A stretch of 32,624 nt of DNA from an uncultured Candidatus Saccharibacteria bacterium (GTDB lineage: Bacteria > Patescibacteriota > Minisyncoccia > UBA6257 > Colwellbacteraceae): contig CAYGDC010000002.1 of the NCBI GenBank assembly GCA_964348605.1, positions 1-32,624 on the forward strand, in the 5' to 3' direction. Numbering within the stretch: position 1 is the stretch's first letter; each line of letters opens with the position of its first letter. Positions 6,352 through 32,624 of the stretch are shown here, piece after piece. Made by a program: the position numbers and the translations under genes. The notes below the pieces were generated by a model that saw only the letters and a list, made by a program, of their open reading frames with translations, ran no database searches and was not told where the DNA came from.

Positions 6352-7080
6352 ATGGAAATATTAACTCCTTTATTAGCTTTATTTTTAGGCATTACTACAG
6401 CCGTTTCTCTTCATACTTTTTATTTGTTTCCAGCAGTCTTTGCTTATTCTATTAGTGCTGGAAAACATCACAAACTTAGACCGCTTTTTATTGCAAGCGG
6501 TCATTTTTTAGCAATTATTCTAATTGGTTTTATTACTCTAGGAATTGGTCTTCTTATAGAAGACCATCTTATTTATTTTAAAATTCCAGCGACAATTTTT
6601 ATTTTAATTGTTGGCTTATATTTAATATTTGTTAAAAAAGCTGACCCCTGTGGAGAAGCTTGTGGTTGCAAAAAAGATTCAGTAATTAATAAACTAAAAT
6701 CAGACAGCTTATTTAAGTCATTTTTCTTTGGTTTTTCACTCGGGCTACTATGTATCGCTTGTCTTTTGCCAGTACTTGGCTCAATTATAGCGATGTTCGC
6801 TATTGTCGGTTACGGCACGATTATATTGATTTTGAGTTATGCCTTTGGACATGCTTTACCAATTTTGATTACTGCTTATCTTCCTTATTTTTCTGAAAAA
6901 TTTGCAAAAGAAAAAATAGAAAAAAATATAATAATTTTAAGAAAAATAGCCGGCCTTATTCTAATTATTGTTAGCATTTATCTATTCTGGTATTTATTTA
7001 TTTCCGACCATGATCATAAAGAAGACCATGAAGATAAGTATTATAGCCAACTTAATTATAGGGCTGAAAAGAATTATTAA
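6352..7080 (+). CDS. CcdA/DsbD-family-like polytopic membrane protein with atypical cysteines and a His-rich tail
   Basis: About six hydrophobic helices. TM1 (SLHTFYLFPAVFAYS) aligns by eye with the CcdA SPCxLPLYPAFLSY motif but has no Cys. TM4 has LLCIACLLPVLG (CxxC plus the CxxP-like motif). The loop carries DPCGEACGCKKD and the C-terminus carries DHDHKEDHEDK. Confidence 0.5.
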   Translation: MEILTPLLALFLGITTAVSLHTFYLFPAVFAYSISAGKHHKLRPLFIASGHFLAIILIGFITLGIGLLIEDHLIYFKIPATIFILIVGLYLIFVKKADPCGEACGCKKDSVINKLKSDSLFKSFFFGFSLGLLCIACLLPVLGSIIAMFAIVGYGTIILILSYAFGHALPILITAYLPYFSEKFAKEKIEKNIIILRKIAGLILIIVSIYLFWYLFISDHDHKEDHEDKYYSQLNYRAEKNY

Positions 7081-7924: not shown

Positions 7925-9118
7925 ATGGCAGAAAAATTTGAACGTTCAAAGCCTCACGTTAATGTTGGCACTATTGGTCATGTCGACCATGGTAAGACCA
8001 CTTTAACCGCTGCTTTGACTCACGTCCTCTTCCTCAAGGGGCTTGCTAAAAAAGAGGAAAGAGTTGACCAGATAGACAACGCCCCTGAAGAAAAAGCTCG
8101 TGGTATCACGATTGCTTTGCATCACTCTGAATACGAATCAGAAAAACGTCACTATGCACACATAGACGCTCCTGGGCACGCTGACTATATCAAAAACATG
8201 ATTACTGGCGCCGCTCAAATGGACGGAGCAGTTCTTGTTGTTTCCGCTGCTGATGGTCCAATGCCTCAAACAAGAGAACATATTCTTCTTGCAAAACAAG
8301 TAGGTGTTCCGTCCATCGTTGTTTTTCTTAATAAAACTGACATGGTTGATGACCCAGAGCTTGTTGATTTAGTTGAGGCTGAGATTAGAGAGCTTCTTTC
8401 TAAGTACCAATATCCTGGCGCAGAAACTCCTATTATTCGTGGATCAGCCCTTAAAGCATTAGAAACAACAAATCCTGACGATGAAGCTAATAAGCCTATT
8501 ATGGAGCTTGTTAATGCTTTAGACAATTATATTGTTGAGCCAAAACGCGAAACCGAAAAGCCGTTTCTTATGCCAGTTGAAGACATCTTTACAATTGAAG
8601 GCAGAGGAACTGTTGTTACTGGGCGCATTGAGCGAGGCACGATTAAACTAAATGAAAACATAGAAATAGTTGGCTTACAGCCCACTCAGGCTACTGTTGT
8701 TACAGGTATTGAAATGTTCAATAAGCAACTTGATGAAGGACAAGCTGGAGATAATGCTGGACTTCTTTTAAGGGGCACTAAGAAAGAAAATATTCAACGC
8801 GGACAAGTTCTTGCAAAGCCTGGATCTGTTACTCCGCATACTGACTTTGAAGCTGAGGTATTATTGCTTAGCAAAGAAGAGGGTGGTCGTCACACTCCTA
8901 TCTTTGGAGGATATAGGCCACAATTTTATATTCGTACCACTGACGTAACAGGAGAAGTTAAGCTTCCTGCTGGCACAGAAATGGCCATGCCTGGAGACAC
9001 TGTTAAGGTCAATGTTGTTCTTATTTCTCCAACTGCGCTAGAAGAACAACAGCGCTTTGCTATTCGCGAAGGAGGAAAAACCGTTGGTGCAGGAGTCATC
9101 ACTAAAATTAACAAATAA
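7925..9118 (+). CDS. tuf: Elongation factor Tu
   Basis: [14 protein letters not shown] and NKTD motifs in 397 aa. Confidence 0.97.
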
Positions 9119-17218: not shown

Positions 17219-17220
17219 AA

Positions 17221-17409
17221 ATGCAGTTACACGAATTACAACCAAATCATTACAATAAAGAAGCAAAAAGAATTGCTCGTGGAGGCAAGCGTGGTCGCAC
17301 TTCTGGAAGAGGGCAAAAAGGTCAAAAATCTCGTTCAGGTAGAAAAATTCGTCCAGCAATTAGAGATTTTGTACAAAGACTACCGAAATTAAGAGGAAAG
17401 CATGGATAA
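17221..17409 (+). CDS. rplO: 50S ribosomal protein L15, N-terminal part only (62 aa)
   Basis: GGKRGRTSGRGQKGQKSRSG and LPKLRG motifs match the L15 N-terminal extension. The stop at 17407-17409 overlaps the secY start, so there is no room for the C-terminal globular domain. Confidence 0.75.
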   Translation: MQLHELQPNHYNKEAKRIARGGKRGRTSGRGQKGQKSRSGRKIRPAIRDFVQRLPKLRGKHG

Positions 17410-29500: not shown

Positions 29501-29580
29501 AACTTTTAAACCTTGAAACTTTTAAGCTTCCTGCGTAGCGGGCCTTAAACTTTTAAGTCTTCTTCCGCGAAGCAGGGCCT
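29501..29580. repeat. Tandem AACTTTTAA(G/A)-type units (tpiA / minus-gene convergent spacer)
   Basis: aacttttaaaccttga (29501-29516), aacttttaagcttcctgcgtagcgggcc (29517-29544), ttaaacttttaagtcttcttccgcgaagcagggcc (29545-29579). The last unit supplies the stop and the last ~8 codons of the minus-strand ORF. Confidence 0.5.
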
Positions 29581-30404
29581 GGACTTGCTTGCAAAGCAAG
29601 CTTTTCTTTAATTTGATTAATGGTGTCTTGAAAATTTTCTACTCGTTTTTTTAGATTTTTTTCTAGATTTGAATTAAGTTCAACCGCTTTAATTTGAGTA
29701 TCAATTGAGCTTATAAAATAATCAAAAATTTTCTTTTCATAATCTGATGGCGGTTTATCAGCTGAAGAGATAAATGCCTGAACTCCTTTTCGGACATGTT
29801 CTGGTGATAGGGCTAGATAAAAAATAGGTATATTTTGAATAGCTCGACTTGGCACGATTTGTCCATTCTTAATAGCTAAAGCATATTTTAAGAAAATACC
29901 GCCTTTATTGTTTTTATGTAAGACTTGCGATTTTTTAGCTTCAAATCTTGCTCCCTTAATCTCTCCAACTTCATCTAATGCGCAAACGAGGTTCCCGTTT
30001 AGGCGGTCAATAATTACATTATCAGCTCCGTTTTTAATATCATCAAATCTAGAAGCGCGTGTAGTTACAAAGTTATCAGGCAAAAATTTATTAAAAATAC
30101 CTGTTTTTAACATCTCTAATTGCTCGCCTAATCGTTGTTCCGGAGTTATTTTTTTAGTATCAACCAAAGACTCAATTCTCGAAACCTCCTGTTTATCTCG
30201 CTCAATTTCCTTAACATCATATATGTCACTAAATTCATCCATTTCAATGCGACAATTATCTCGCACAGGAATTCCTTCTTGTTTTAGCTCTTTTGCCACT
30301 AATCTCAAAAGCTCTTTTAGCGTTCTGGCGTCTTCTTCTGCTTTTTGATGCTCAATCGCTTTATCTTCTTTATGCAAAAGAGCTGTTTCTGGTTTTGTAA
30401 ACAT
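29553..30404 (-). CDS. Hypothetical protein (283 aa), the only minus-strand gene in the window
   Basis: Long uninterrupted ORF with host-like AT-rich codon usage. Charged, helical N- and C-terminal thirds and a mixed central region (RASRFDDIKNGADNVIIDRLNGNLVCALDEVGEIKG). I recognise no family. Confidence 0.6.
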   Translation of the reverse strand: MFTKPETALLHKEDKAIEHQKAEEDARTLKELLRLVAKELKQEGIPVRDNCRIEMDEFSDIYDVKEIERDKQEVSRIESLVDTKKITPEQRLGEQLEMLKTGIFNKFLPDNFVTTRASRFDDIKNGADNVIIDRLNGNLVCALDEVGEIKGARFEAKKSQVLHKNNKGGIFLKYALAIKNGQIVPSRAIQNIPIFYLALSPEHVRKGVQAFISSADKPPSDYEKKIFDYFISSIDTQIKAVELNSNLEKNLKKRVENFQDTINQIKEKLALQASPGPASRKKT

Positions 30405-30520
30405 TTTATTGAATAATTTTTATTATTTCAGCTTAACATATTTTTCTTTATCAAAGCTAATTTTAATAAAAACTTTTTTAAAGTTATCTTCTATAAGATT
30501 GTTAGGCAAATCTAGGGCAT

Positions 30521-30549
30521 TTGACAAAAGTATTTTAATATGCTACTAT
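30521..30549 (+). promoter_or_regulatory. Putative promoter of the high-GC gene
   Basis: TTGACA (30521-30526), 17-nt spacer, TACTAT (30544-30549). It lies in AT-rich DNA and would give a ~50-nt leader containing AAGGAGG (30593-30599). Confidence 0.5.
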
Positions 30550-30606
30550 CTTGTTAGTTGTTTGACAATTTTTTTATATATCAAAGAAAAGAAAGGAGGG
30601 GTACAC

Positions 30607-31290
30607 ATGAGTACCCCAAAGCCGCCAACCCCACCAGCCCCAGTCCCAACTCCAGCCACAGTTCCAACTCCAGCCCCCAATAGTAGCAGCTGGTGGATGC
30701 GAGGACTAGTTGTCCTCGCAGTGGTAGCCATTCTCGTGCTTGTAGCACAAGAATGGCTAGGCACGCAAGTAGAACTTGCGCGCCTACAGGAGAGAGCTGT
30801 GTGGCTTGAGAAAGCCACACAGCCAGCTCCACCGCCGCCTGCCCCTGCGCCTGCTGCGCCGGCTCCTAGGCCGGCACCCCGCCCTGCTGCGCCTGCGCCC
30901 GCACCAACACCAGTTGTGGTGGTGGTGCCTGCGCCCGCGCCGGCCCCTGCGCCTGTGCCAGCACCGCCGGCCTCCGTTCCTGCACCTGCTCCGGCACTGG
31001 CTCCAGCGCCCGCACCGGTGCCCCTCCAGATTGTCTCGTCCCTCAGGGAGGAGACCGCACTGGGAGCCAGATGGCTCTTGGTGCAGGTCTCCCTCCTCGG
31101 GGATTCCAGCGAAGTAATTCGCTGGACCCTGGAGGTGAACGGGGTGCCCCAACCCTGGGGACCCCGTTATGGAACAGAGACTCTCTGGGAGGTGCGATTA
31201 GAGCACCCGCCCAGAGGGACAAACATAGTCCCGCTCGTGCAGTTACGAGACGGGACCATCGTCAGGGGACTGATAATCACAGTTCCCTGA
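30607..31290 (+). CDS. Pro/Ala-rich single-pass membrane protein (227 aa) encoded on a high-GC island
   Basis: ATG 30607 lies 7 nt after AAGGAGG. Order of parts: Pro-rich N-tail; TM helix GLVVLAVVAILVLVA; short helical segment; ~80-aa (P/A)n spacer; ~90-aa C-terminal domain (LQIVSSLREE...GLIITVP). The ORF-track start at 30409 would read through the promoter and SD. Confidence 0.7.
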   Translation: MSTPKPPTPPAPVPTPATVPTPAPNSSSWWMRGLVVLAVVAILVLVAQEWLGTQVELARLQERAVWLEKATQPAPPPPAPAPAAPAPRPAPRPAAPAPAPTPVVVVVPAPAPAPAPVPAPPASVPAPAPALAPAPAPVPLQIVSSLREETALGARWLLVQVSLLGDSSEVIRWTLEVNGVPQPWGPRYGTETLWEVRLEHPPRGTNIVPLVQLRDGTIVRGLIITVP

Positions 31291-31297
31291 CCCTCAC

Positions 31298-31327
31298 GCC
31301 CCTCTCCTTATAGGAAGGGGCTTTTTT
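31298..31327 (+). terminator. Rho-independent terminator of the high-GC gene
   Basis: GCCCCTCTCC / GGAAGGGGC stem with one bulged C (31298-31321), loop TTATA, followed by TTTTTT (31322-31327). Confidence 0.65.
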
Positions 31328-31334
31328 ATTTTAT

Positions 31335-31363
31335 TTGACAATAATATATTTATATGTTAGACT
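31335..31363 (+). promoter_or_regulatory. Putative promoter of the repeat-protein gene (near-leaderless)
   Basis: TTGACA (31335-31340), 17-nt spacer, TAGACT (31358-31363), ATG at 31373. Confidence 0.4.
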
Positions 31364-31372
31364 AGCATCATT

Positions 31373-32624
31373 ATGAAAATACTCACAAAAATATCTATAG
31401 TCGGTGTAAGTGCTTTTATGTTGCTTGGTTTTGCTCCAGGAGCTTTAGCCACTGCTCCTTCAGCTATCACAAGCGATGCAGTAAGCATCACTAGTTCATC
31501 TGCTACTTTCCGTGGCTCTGTTGACCCAAATGGTCTTACTACAGTTTTTTGGTTTGAATATGGTATCGGTAGCTTTACTCATCAAACCTCATCTTCTTCT
31601 GCTGGCGCAGGAAGTGATTTTAGTTCTTTTTCAAGCCCAGTCTCTGGTCTTTCTCCTAACACTACTTATACTTTCCGCATCGTTGCGAGCAATAGCACTG
31701 GCATTAATCGTGGAAATACACAAAACTTCACTACCTTATCTTCGGTTGGCCAGCAACCCACAACAACTTTTAGAGTACAACTATCAGCTAGTCCCCGTGA
31801 TATTAATCAAGGAGAATCCGCTACTCTTAGTTGGGGGTCATCTATGGCTACTGGTTGCACAATTATAACTTCGGTAGGGACAGGACTAGGCGCAGTAGAG
31901 CCAAATGGCACAAGAATAGTTCGCCCAACTACCACAACTAGATATACACTTTCATGCAGGCATATAGATGGCTCTGCTAATATTATAAATTCTGAAGCAG
32001 TAGTGACTGTAGCGCCTCAATCAACTATCATTGCTCCTGTTGTTGTTTTACCCTCTGCCATCACAAATAGTCCAACACATGTTTCTACTTCATCTGCAAG
32101 CTTTCACGGATCTGTAAATCCAAACGGCCTCTTTACTACCTACTGGTTTGAATATGGTATTGGTAACTTTGTTAATCAAACTCCATCATTTTCCGCTGGC
32201 TCTGGCACTAGTTTTATTTCTGGAACATATATAGCGTCAGGCCTTTCTCCCAACACTACTTATGTTTTTCGCATCGTTGCAAGCAATAGTGCAGGTATCC
32301 AGCGTGGAAACACACAGAGCTTTACTACTTTGTCTTTAGCTGCTCCATTGCCTCCACCGCCACCTGCGCCAACTCCTGTTCTGCCCGCAGCCATTACAAA
32401 CGACGCAGTAAATATCACTAGCTCATCTGTTACTTTCCGTGGCTCTGTTGATCCAAATAGTTTTACTACTACCTACTGGTTTGAATATGGTATTGGTAAC
32501 TTCACTCATCAAACCTCATCTTCTTCTGCTGGTTCCGGAACACACTTTGTTTCTGTTACAGATTCAGTCTCAGGCCTTTCTCCCAACACTACTTATGTTT
32601 TTCGCATCGTTGCAAGCAATAGTG
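31373..32624 (+). CDS. Secreted/cell-surface protein with FN3-like beta-sandwich repeats (3' end beyond the window)
   Basis: My own translation from ATG 31373 is open to the last base of the window, and it is not in the ORF track because it has no stop. Signal peptide MKILTKISIVGVSAFMLLGFAPGALA. At least three ~93-aa repeats (..F(R/H)GSV(D/N)PNG..(F/Y)WFEYGIG..SGLSPNTTY.FRIVASNS.G..RGNTQ.FTTLS). One Ig-like insert (GESATLSWGS..TTRYTLSC). Confidence 0.8.
   Translation, partial: MKILTKISIVGVSAFMLLGFAPGALATAPSAITSDAVSITSSSATFRGSVDPNGLTTVFWFEYGIGSFTHQTSSSSAGAGSDFSSFSSPVSGLSPNTTYTFRIVASNSTGINRGNTQNFTTLSSVGQQPTTTFRVQLSASPRDINQGESATLSWGSSMATGCTIITSVGTGLGAVEPNGTRIVRPTTTTRYTLSCRHIDGSANIINSEAVVTVAPQSTIIAPVVVLPSAITNSPTHVSTSSASFHGSVNPNGLFTTYWFEYGIGNFVNQTPSFSAGSGTSFISGTYIASGLSPNTTYVFRIVASNSAGIQRGNTQSFTTLSLAAPLPPPPPAPTPVLPAAITNDAVNITSSSVTFRGSVDPNSFTTTYWFEYGIGNFTHQTSSSSAGSGTHFVSVTDSVSGLSPNTTYVFRIVASNS
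31463..31741 (+). repeat. FN3-like coding repeat, copy 1 (279 nt)
   Basis: Aligns codon for codon with copies 2 and 3. Long identical runs with copy 3, for example actcatcaaacctcatcttcttctgctgg. Confidence 0.8.
32057..32335 (+). repeat. FN3-like coding repeat, copy 2 (279 nt)
   Basis: Shares the run tcaggcctttctcccaacactacttatgtttttcgcatcgttgcaagcaatagtg, and also actacctactggtttgaatatggtattggtaactt, exactly with copy 3. Confidence 0.8.
32390..32624 (+). repeat. FN3-like coding repeat, copy 3 (truncated by the window end)
   Basis: Same unit as copies 1 and 2, preceded by a Pro-rich linker (PLPPPPPAPTPVLP). Confidence 0.8.

Follow-up and report, generated by a model that had tools for sequence, protein, structure and literature searches.

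Results

The locus and its composition

Near the 3' end of a 32,624-nucleotide (nt) stretch of DNA from an uncultured Candidatus Saccharibacteria bacterium (contig CAYGDC010000002.1, assembly GCA_964348605.1; hereafter the window) lies a GC-rich open reading frame (ORF) of 227 residues, here called the island gene. It sits between a 283-residue gene of unassigned function on the minus strand and the gene for an Fn3-repeat surface protein on the plus strand. An earlier note, made from the window alone, had read the gene as a recent, cassette-like acquisition from a high-GC donor, conceivably the host lineage of an episymbiont. We find that its mRNA is folded to an extreme degree and that this folding is conserved, and comparison with related strains shows the gene to be a resident of its lineage, held in conserved synteny. 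The features of the locus, with the basis of each assignment, are as follows:

30521..30549, plus strand: sigma-70-type promoter, TTGACA, 17 nt, TG-extended -10 box TACTAT, 10/12 consensus match (sequence motif)
30556..30606, plus strand: AT-rich 5' leader (promoter geometry, predicted start)
30593..30599, plus strand: Shine-Dalgarno (SD) sequence AAGGAGG, 7 nt upstream of the ATG (sequence)
30598..30617, plus strand: 7-bp hairpin GGGGTAC-ACATGA-GTACCCC whose loop displays the AUG and whose stem takes in the last two G of the SD (inverted repeat and folding)
30607..31290, plus strand: coding sequence (CDS) of 227 residues, predicted bitopic membrane protein of a new family (frame kept in all orthologues)
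30607..30690, plus strand: Pro/Thr-rich N-terminal, putatively cytoplasmic tail with an 18-nt tandem repeat (specific to the allele in the window)
30682..30816, plus strand: transmembrane (TM) helix and juxtamembrane helix, residues 26-70 (AlphaFold2 helix, predicted local distance difference test score (pLDDT) 79-93)
30820..31023, plus strand: Pro/Ala(/Val)-rich stalk of 68 residues, variable in length and sequence among strains (sequence and strain comparison)
31024..31287, plus strand: C-terminal all-beta, putatively immunoglobulin (Ig)/Fn3-like domain of 88 residues that defines the family (AlphaFold2 residues 140-227, pLDDT 86-95)
31298..31327, plus strand: intrinsic terminator, GC-rich hairpin and T-run (sequence and folding)
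31335..31363, plus strand: promoter of the Fn3 partner gene, a 27-nt direct repeat (81%) of the island gene's promoter (repeat analysis)
31373..32624, plus strand: 5' part of the partner gene, which encodes a surface protein with Fn3 repeats and a signal peptide and runs off the window (domain matches)

The four hand counts of G+C given in the earlier note (16/60, 50/60, 36/60 and 10/60) were all reproduced exactly. In a 200-nt profile, GC climbs from 0.215 (30400-30599) through 0.575 to 0.745 (30800-30999), falls to 0.425 (31200-31399), and is back at low values within ≈100 nt on either side of the gene. The island ORF has a GC of 0.64 and a GC at third codon positions (GC3) of 0.57, compared with 0.30-0.45 and 0.16-0.37 among the 36 other ORFs in the window. 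The profile and the per-ORF values together confirm a sharply bounded, single-gene block of high GC.

Recoding the same 227-residue protein with the window's own codon usage gives an expected GC of 0.54 and GC3 of 0.29. Of the excess over the background of 0.38, ≈60% comes from amino acid composition, rich in Pro and Ala, and ≈40% from synonymous choice. The Pro/Ala segment (GC 0.78) owes its value mainly to codon positions 1 and 2, and the C-terminal domain has a GC3 of 0.70 where 0.29 is expected from window codon usage, which bears out the suggestion that the shift goes beyond Pro and Ala codons. Arg AGA and AGG and Gly GGA and GGG are all in use, unlike in a high-GC actinobacterial gene.

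Six ENA assemblies and three Logan runs contain contigs that encode the exact 227-residue protein (or a 293-residue over-call of it), and these contigs show 95-100% alignment to the window through both junctions. An assembly chimera, which the earlier note had wished to see checked, is thereby ruled out, both junctions being present in at least nine independent assemblies.

Folding of the island mRNA

The predicted transcript (30556-31330) folds with -405 kcal/mol, compared with -294 ± 8.5 kcal/mol for dinucleotide shuffles (z = -13.2), and ≈65% of the island mRNA is predicted to be base-paired. The CDS alone gives z = -12.9 against a separate set of dinucleotide shuffles and z = -11.7 against synonymous-codon shuffles, in which protein, codon usage, and GC3 are fixed. 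Divided into segments, the same synonymous shuffles give z values of -5.9 (TM/helix region), -7.8 (C-domain), and +0.1 (Pro/Ala segment); the last value rules out an artefact of the Pro/Ala repeat. Scores for 216 sliding 300-nt segments covering the 32.6 kb have a median z of -0.28 (sd 1.64). The island gene accounts for the four lowest (-7.0 to -10.6), the next being -4.3.

Strong folding extends to the protein family. Members in AT-rich genomes have z values of -4.1 to -10.0, compared with -0.8 to -2.5 for control genes, and an AT-rich allele and members from mid-GC genomes lie at about -3. Elsewhere in the window, the next most negative values after those of the island gene (-4.3 and -3.9) belong to a 242-residue ORF at 6352-7080 that has no Pfam family and the lowest GC of the window (0.30, GC3 0.19).

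The structure can be resolved into individual helices. Codons of the TM/helix segment form four or five strong hairpins (inverted repeats I1, I4, I6, and I14) that carry compensatory changes relative to strains L028 and L017, some of which alter amino acids (for example, CATTCT/AGAATG to CACTCT/AGAGTG). The mRNA of the C-domain contains about nine conserved helices. RNAalifold, run on six C-domain-plus-terminator sequences, returned 93 consensus pairs, 21 of them with two-sided changes. At these positions, 87.4% of cells are paired, compared with 40-55% when the partners are slid, and the 21 two-sided changes compare with 7-12 for slid partners and 11.6 ± 2.5 for shuffled alignments (0 of 500 shuffles reach 21). 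GC3 differs between paired and unpaired positions, at 0.69 and 0.38 in the window, 0.67 and 0.24 in L028, and 0.71 and 0.30 in L014. Unpaired third positions are near native GC3, and the GC3 excess is located in the stems.

Retention of the window's helices is 93-97% in close orthologues, 74% in family member P0016, and 61% in P0017. Distant members that fold strongly keep 44-53% of the window's pairs, no better than slid controls. That these members fold strongly with different helices points to foldedness in general as the common property, and selection appears to act on folding as such rather than on one fixed shape. No Rfam 15 family matched at its gathering score; the best match reached 22 bits, against thresholds of 50-94.

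Residency of the gene in its lineage

Related strains were recovered by a metagenome scan anchored on the 283-residue upstream neighbor. Island-gene orthologues occupy the same site in L010, L014, L016, L017, L018, and L028, and the neighbor is 97% identical in L014, L016, and L010 and 72% identical in L017 and L018. In all five of these strains the orthologue has its SD and encodes the same C-terminal domain together with a TM helix and a Pro/Ala stalk, with a gene GC of 0.61 in L014 and L016 and 0.57 in L017 and L018. Orthologues in related AT-rich genomes thus share both site and composition, an observation that the earlier note itself had set against transfer. Between the window and L014, synonymous divergence (dS) is 0.69 for the C-domain, compared with 0.57 for PBP2, 0.56 for TIM, and 0.62 for MreB; relative to L017, it is 1.24, compared with 0.53-1.03 for flanking genes. 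Judged by these distances, the GC-rich island alleles co-diverge with the genome.

Syntenic homologues were also found in L032, L039, and L041, and distant homologues retain the order TIM, family gene, Fn3-repeat surface protein. P0017 (in L032) lies between TIM and the infA and ribosomal protein genes. P0018, on a 188-kb contig, follows mreB-mreC-mreD-PBP2-TIM-GtrA and precedes an Fn3 protein gene, and P0022 has TIM-GtrA upstream and an Fn3 protein downstream. P0016 has a sortase gene upstream and an Fn3 protein downstream, next to mraZ. P0020 and P0023 are genes of GC 0.59-0.64 with AT-rich flanks, on short contigs that reveal the context for only ≈100-260 bp per side. All six (P0016, P0017, P0018, P0020, P0022, and P0023) carry a TTGACA/TG-extended promoter, an AGGAGG SD, and a hairpin terminator, and synteny is maintained down to 29-38% identity.

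Substitutions polarised with L017 as outgroup number 12 from GC to AT and 18 from AT to GC, and they contain no signal of amelioration. Decay to native composition would predict 71-82% GC-to-AT changes and is rejected (P ≤ 4e-4).

Searches for a donor were carried out at several levels. An exhaustive HMMER search of the C-domain against 1.84 billion representative proteins yielded about eight real clusters, none outside the lineage and six of them in AT-rich or mid-GC genomes. Profile and pattern scans for the C-domain in 185,579 GTDB species genomes found no homologue, the 283-residue neighbor had no match in the GTDB species genomes, and viral contigs scanned for the family contained no homologue. 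A word-indexed protein search with the C-domain alone returned no match and missed the island gene itself; with the family profile, it matched only P0016. A match to an Arthrobacter phage endolysin in a search of phage DNA (95 nt, 73%, in a Pro/Ala-type region) was rejected as low complexity. Taken with the same-site orthologues, genome-like dS, synteny, and absence of decay, the lack of a donor homologue leaves recent acquisition from a high-GC donor unsupported. The host lineage fares no better as a source, with no homologue outside a small, lineage-bound family.

Recombination at the locus

The locus is a mosaic of exchanged segments. The window loses homology to L014 at 30545, just past the -10 box, and regains it at 31021; for L028, the corresponding positions are 30563 and 30699, so that on sequence comparison the 5' leader is part of the exchangeable module. 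N-terminal modules have been swapped, the 5' module of the window being shared with the more distant L017 and not with L014. L028 has an Fn3 partner 99% identical to that of the window and an island gene only 78% identical in DNA, and L001 has an island gene identical to the window's and an Fn3 N-terminal part 82% identical in protein. Stalk length varies as well, 12 residues of (PA)n being all that separates L017 from L018. The cassette-like unit of the earlier note therefore survives as an exchangeable module with breakpoints after the -10 box and at the terminator, but the exchange takes place within the lineage's own pool of alleles.

An AT-rich, stalk-less allele, P0017, occupies the locus in L032. 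It is 54% identical in the domain and has a GC of 0.37, a GC3 of 0.28, and a folding z of about -3. Because such an allele can hold the same locus, family members need not be strongly folded or GC-rich.

Several further observations concern rearrangement at this site. The promoters of the island and Fn3 genes, as direct repeats at 30519-30545 and 31333-31359, bracket the island unit, and unequal crossing-over between these 27-nt repeats could delete or duplicate the gene. L032 holds, at 1347-2110, between TIM and its intact AT-rich family gene, a decayed tandem copy consisting of a 52-residue fragment (P0021) followed by broken frames, with its own terminator similar to that of the window; the locus has hence undergone both duplication and loss of copies. 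The 283-residue neighbor (29553-30404, minus strand) has a dS of 0.12 relative to L014, far below the ≈0.55-0.62 of PBP2, TIM, and MreB, which marks it as a recent recombination patch. L032 and L041 lack its gene at this locus.

Expression signals

The perfect pattern TTGACA-N16-18-TAnnnT occurs at only four sites in the 32.6 kb: before the rpsL-rpsG-fusA operon, tuf, the island gene, and the Fn3 gene. The island promoter is kept in L010, L014, L028, and L032, and its motif recurs in distant members of the family. The terminator is conserved in orthologues with covariation (helix 10 of the consensus), and three Logan contigs terminate at 31334. Promoter and terminator were thus both recovered where the earlier note had placed them, and both are conserved in orthologues.

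The note had also singled out the SD as the only perfect one in the window and the surrounding genes as lacking any. The AAGGAGG heptamer also occurs at 9069, 10210, and 14090 on the plus strand and twice on the minus strand, each time within a gene, and the copy at 30593-30599 is the only one positioned as an SD. SDs are missing from 35 of the window's 36 other starts, the exception being a weak GAGG at SecY. In all family members examined, AGGAGG lies 7-9 nt 5' of the start. In the predicted fold, the first five bases of the island gene's SD are single-stranded; the hairpin with the AUG in its loop is retained in L017 with one G-U pair and is absent from alleles with other 5' modules. A literature search on SD use in Patescibacteria found nothing useful.

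The protein and its partner

AlphaFold2, given eight family sequences, models the Pro/Ala stretch (residues 71-139) as a low-confidence coil (pLDDT 53-62) between the helical segment and the C-terminal domain, in support of the anatomy proposed earlier of a TM anchor, Pro/Ala stalk, and C-terminal domain. Foldseek searches of PDB and BFVD with the C-domain gave as best matches generic Ig, Fn3, PKD, and CBM domains (E ≥ 5.7e-3 in PDB, target TM-score 0.5-0.6), and a sequence profile search of PDB with the C-domain found no match. The protein has no Pfam (none at E ≤ 1), NCBIfam, or PHROG family; weak NCBIfam matches to GltJ and SrfA were dismissed as low-complexity, Pro-rich alignments. From these results, the C-domain is a new sequence family with what is probably a common fold. 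It is conserved down to 29% identity, and its ratio of nonsynonymous to synonymous divergence (dN/dS) of 0.07-0.19 shows it to be under purifying selection.

We infer an N-in/C-out topology because the N-terminal tails of orthologues are basic and because P0022 has a PG_binding_1 domain after its TM helix, and the same observations favor outward display of the C-domain on its stalk, as previously suggested. At 423 residues, P0022 (L039:2781-4052) is an enlarged, distant member of the family: its N-terminal segment carries CxxC...CxxC, its peptidoglycan-binding domain comes after the TM helix, and its C-domain ends in TWTPSN. L028 and L017 lack the N-terminal tail of the window's allele and have short basic ones in its place; the Pro/Thr-rich sequence of the window's tail is encoded by an 18-nt tandem repeat (30634-30677) of 2.4 copies with 88% matches.

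An Fn3-repeat protein is encoded 3' of the family gene wherever sufficient downstream DNA was recovered. In L032, the family gene is followed by proteins of 113 and 412 residues, of which the latter resembles the N-terminal part of the Fn3 protein. A functional pairing of the island protein with the Fn3-repeat protein is likely from this arrangement. The Fn3 gene (31373-32624; L001:10767-13301) is mosaic and internally repetitive. Full-length copies encode a C-terminal TM anchor as well as a signal peptide, along with "WFEYG" repeat modules and a CLIPPER/DUF11-like domain.

Other observations in the window

Ribosomal protein S5 is followed by SecY across a 184-bp gap (17219-17401), and L30 and L15 are not encoded at their usual place in the spc operon. 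This junction fits a bacterium of the candidate phyla radiation (CPR) type. The mechanical TTG start of a SecD-like ORF (908-2260) overlaps a tRNA-Lys gene (863-935), and the real start is probably further downstream of 908. In related AT-rich contigs, a GC-rich intergenic repeat containing ...GCGGGAATCCAG... is found at L021:2986-3417, L036:1-60, and L037:1-50, with one copy just 5' of the P0020 promoter. This repeat could be a small palindrome or mobile element and a cause of contig breaks.

Discussion

The island gene is a resident gene at a recombining surface locus, and we consider it probable that its mRNA, monocistronic and stabilised by structure, is strongly expressed and encodes a stalked surface protein. 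The gene is one allele of a conserved, recombination-prone surface locus between mreBCD-PBP2-TIM and the infA/ribosomal protein genes. A promoter of the rpsL/tuf class would give rise to a monocistronic RNA of ≈770 nt, ended by the intrinsic terminator, and the combination of promoter, SD, folding, and terminator suggests that this mRNA is stable and highly expressed. The GC excess would then be made up of Pro/Ala composition and synonymous G/C at base-paired positions, with the TM/helix and C-domain coding regions folding as a dense hairpin array kept by selection. Such folding could give the message a long functional life, and possibly a paced translation, so that the product becomes abundant. 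A folded mRNA would presumably be unable to use the SD-less, AU-rich initiation of the other genes and would hence require a strong SD. The protein would be held by its N-terminal TM anchor and project an Ig-like domain through the wall on a Pro/Ala stalk of variable length, most likely acting together with the downstream Fn3-repeat surface protein. Of the earlier reading as a whole, the observation, the anatomy, and the exchangeable unit stand; foreign origin does not, as the conserved mRNA hairpins better explain the GC3 excess.

A number of points weigh against this proposal. The covariation comes from six sequences, four of them close, and lies inside a coding region. Predicted structures favor G/C in stems by construction, and a TIM control gives a GC3 of 0.35 at paired and 0.21 at unpaired positions. 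In the strand test, one-sided changes leave G-U in 40 cases and A-C in 27 (P = 0.14; 19 and 8 among close orthologues), and although the sense strand has the more negative z in six of eight genes, the difference is non-significant. The Pro/Ala segment has a GC3 of 0.53, compared with an expected 0.26, yet that segment alone has no excess folding. The stalk-less AT-rich P0017 sits at the locus in L032, a strain that is equally close (PBP2 92% identical), and alleles are far more diverged than their flanks (54% in amino acids between the window and L032, compared with 82-92%). Import of alleles from relatives, to judge by these sequences, does occur, and the GC-rich form could have come that way. 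High abundance and mRNA stabilisation, finally, are properties that we infer from sequence.

The points on allele import lead to an explanation that we regard as unlikely, in which a GC-rich allele arrived by homologous replacement from a higher-GC relative and the composition is the donor's rather than a product of selection. The mosaic locus, with island and Fn3 alleles that reassort between strains, speaks for it, as do allele classes much older than their flanks (window and L032) and the presence of the family in relatives with a genome GC of 0.45-0.50. In those mid-GC relatives, however, the gene has a GC of 0.49-0.54 and a GC3 of 0.52-0.64, below the window's 0.64 and the C-domain GC3 of 0.70. 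Replacement also leaves the z of about -12 under synonymous shuffles and the stem-specific GC3 unexplained, and the divergence of the GC-rich alleles tracks that of the genomes.

The hairpins might be more than a general means of stabilising the message. They could confer resistance to RNases (the cell's own or those of host, competitor, or phage) in a bacterium of the episymbiont type, or the transcript could be a dual-function RNA, with an SD reserved for this one message in a genome otherwise devoid of SDs; we think this rather doubtful.

An old horizontal transfer is a possibility to which we give little credence. It would have brought the gene from an unsampled high-GC donor into the ancestor of the clade, where it would be decaying slowly to AT-rich composition. 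The sharply atypical composition bounded by regulatory signals is what such an event would leave; GC3 varies among orthologues (0.70 in the window, 0.55 in L014, 0.50 in L017), and the AT-rich P0017 could be a fully decayed copy. Against this, no homologue was found in a high-GC organism, a GTDB species genome, or a virus, synteny is conserved to 29-38% identity, and polarised substitutions are balanced or GC-ward (12 and 18). Unpaired third positions are already near-native while paired ones hold at ≈0.7, and the use of Arg AGA/AGG and Gly GGA/GGG codons also argues against such a donor.

The inverted repeats could alternatively act as DNA (cruciforms or recombination hot spots) or as antisense RNA, or the locus could be a hot spot of GC-biased gene conversion; we judge this family of explanations very unlikely. 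The antisense strand folds with z = -11.5, the strand test is non-significant, and the locus recombines often, all of which would be expected. The consensus, however, contains 9-20 G-U pairs per sequence, and close orthologues have 19 G-U against 8 A-C changes. A hot spot alone is insufficient because the adjacent Fn3 gene recombines equally and yet has a native GC3 of 0.26 and a z of +0.6, and biased conversion would not put G/C specifically at complementary positions.

Least credible of all is a transcript that functions chiefly as a structured RNA, a regulator or scaffold with a secondary ORF: pairing of ≈65%, a z of about -13, and conserved helices with compensatory changes would suit it, but the strong purifying selection on the protein (dN/dS 0.07-0.19) and its confident predicted fold rule out a non-coding RNA gene, and the conservation of the domain to 29% identity, the different helices of distant members, and the lack of an Rfam family match point the same way.

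Sharp islands of GC and codon usage are routinely taken as horizontal transfer. The proposal of a resident gene with a folded mRNA implies that an island of textbook appearance can arise at home, Pro/Ala content and selected mRNA pairing together mimicking foreign DNA, and island-based calls of horizontal gene transfer in AT-rich or reduced genomes may need the same folding check. The gene would also be a natural case of coding-region mRNA structure under selection and a system for studying global folding of bacterial mRNAs. At the protein level, a stalked Ig-like protein and an Fn3-repeat protein at a hypervariable locus beside cell-shape genes would form a new surface module and a candidate for surface or attachment biology.

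Comparison with known systems

The island gene resembles a horizontally acquired genomic island in its sharply bounded block of atypical GC and codon usage, a single gene with its own signals. It differs in occupying the same site in relatives, in co-diverging with the genome, and in having its GC3 excess in stems, with no sign of donor, mobility gene, or decay. Absence or patchiness at this site was not seen in close relatives. Within 10 kb of the gene there are no mobility genes, the neighbors being housekeeping genes; no tRNA target lies near it, the sole tRNA of the window being at 863-935, and there are no insertion-type flanking repeats, the only flanking direct repeat being the two similar promoters. 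Integron cassettes are usually promoterless, with an attC at the 3' end and an integrase nearby. We rejected this identity for the island gene, which has no integrase among the genes within 10 kb, a promoter of its own, and a short terminator hairpin with a T-run at its 3' end, no attC model having been run. The target of a diversity-generating retroelement was likewise rejected, with no reverse transcriptase within 10 kb and direct repeats confined to Pro/Ala codons and the two promoters.

In architecture, the protein is comparable to bitopic proteins of the TonB/FtsN type, which also have an N-terminal TM anchor, a long Pro-rich spacer, and a C-domain of ≈90 residues outside the membrane. 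Its C-domain, by contrast, is predicted to be an Ig/Fn3-like beta-sandwich, and its conserved neighbor is an Fn3-repeat surface protein. Neither TonB_C (PF03544; no Pfam match at E ≤ 1) nor SPOR (PF05036; no Pfam or NCBIfam match) was found in the island protein. A PTD-repeat surface protein of a Gracilibacterium, also of the CPR, has one N-terminal TM helix and an extracellular Pro-rich repeat, and its locus is hypervariable within populations and breaks assemblies (mBio 2019, PMC6851277). Both its repeat and its domain differ from those of the island protein, and the portions of that description available to us report neither a GC island nor mRNA folding (PMC6851277).

At the level of the message, the comparison is with the mRNA of E. 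coli lpp, which encodes the Braun lipoprotein. Like lpp, the island gene has a strong promoter, an SD, and a terminator and gives a short monocistronic message in which the coding region for an envelope protein is folded into hairpins, and its conserved folding lies far beyond what composition and protein would lead one to expect. The coding region of lpp reportedly contains many stable hairpins, a finding credited to Nakamura, Pirtle, and Inouye in 1980, and the message is classically associated with a long half-life and a very abundant product. The two proteins are unrelated, and here, unlike in lpp, the folding makes a GC island in an AT-rich genome and recurs family-wide with changing helices. 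In work with designed mRNAs and modified nucleotides, the structure of an mRNA is reported to control how much protein is made by altering the functional half-life of the message (Mauger et al., bioRxiv 10.1101/549022). By analogy with that principle, the island gene would be a predicted example from nature, in a bacterium.

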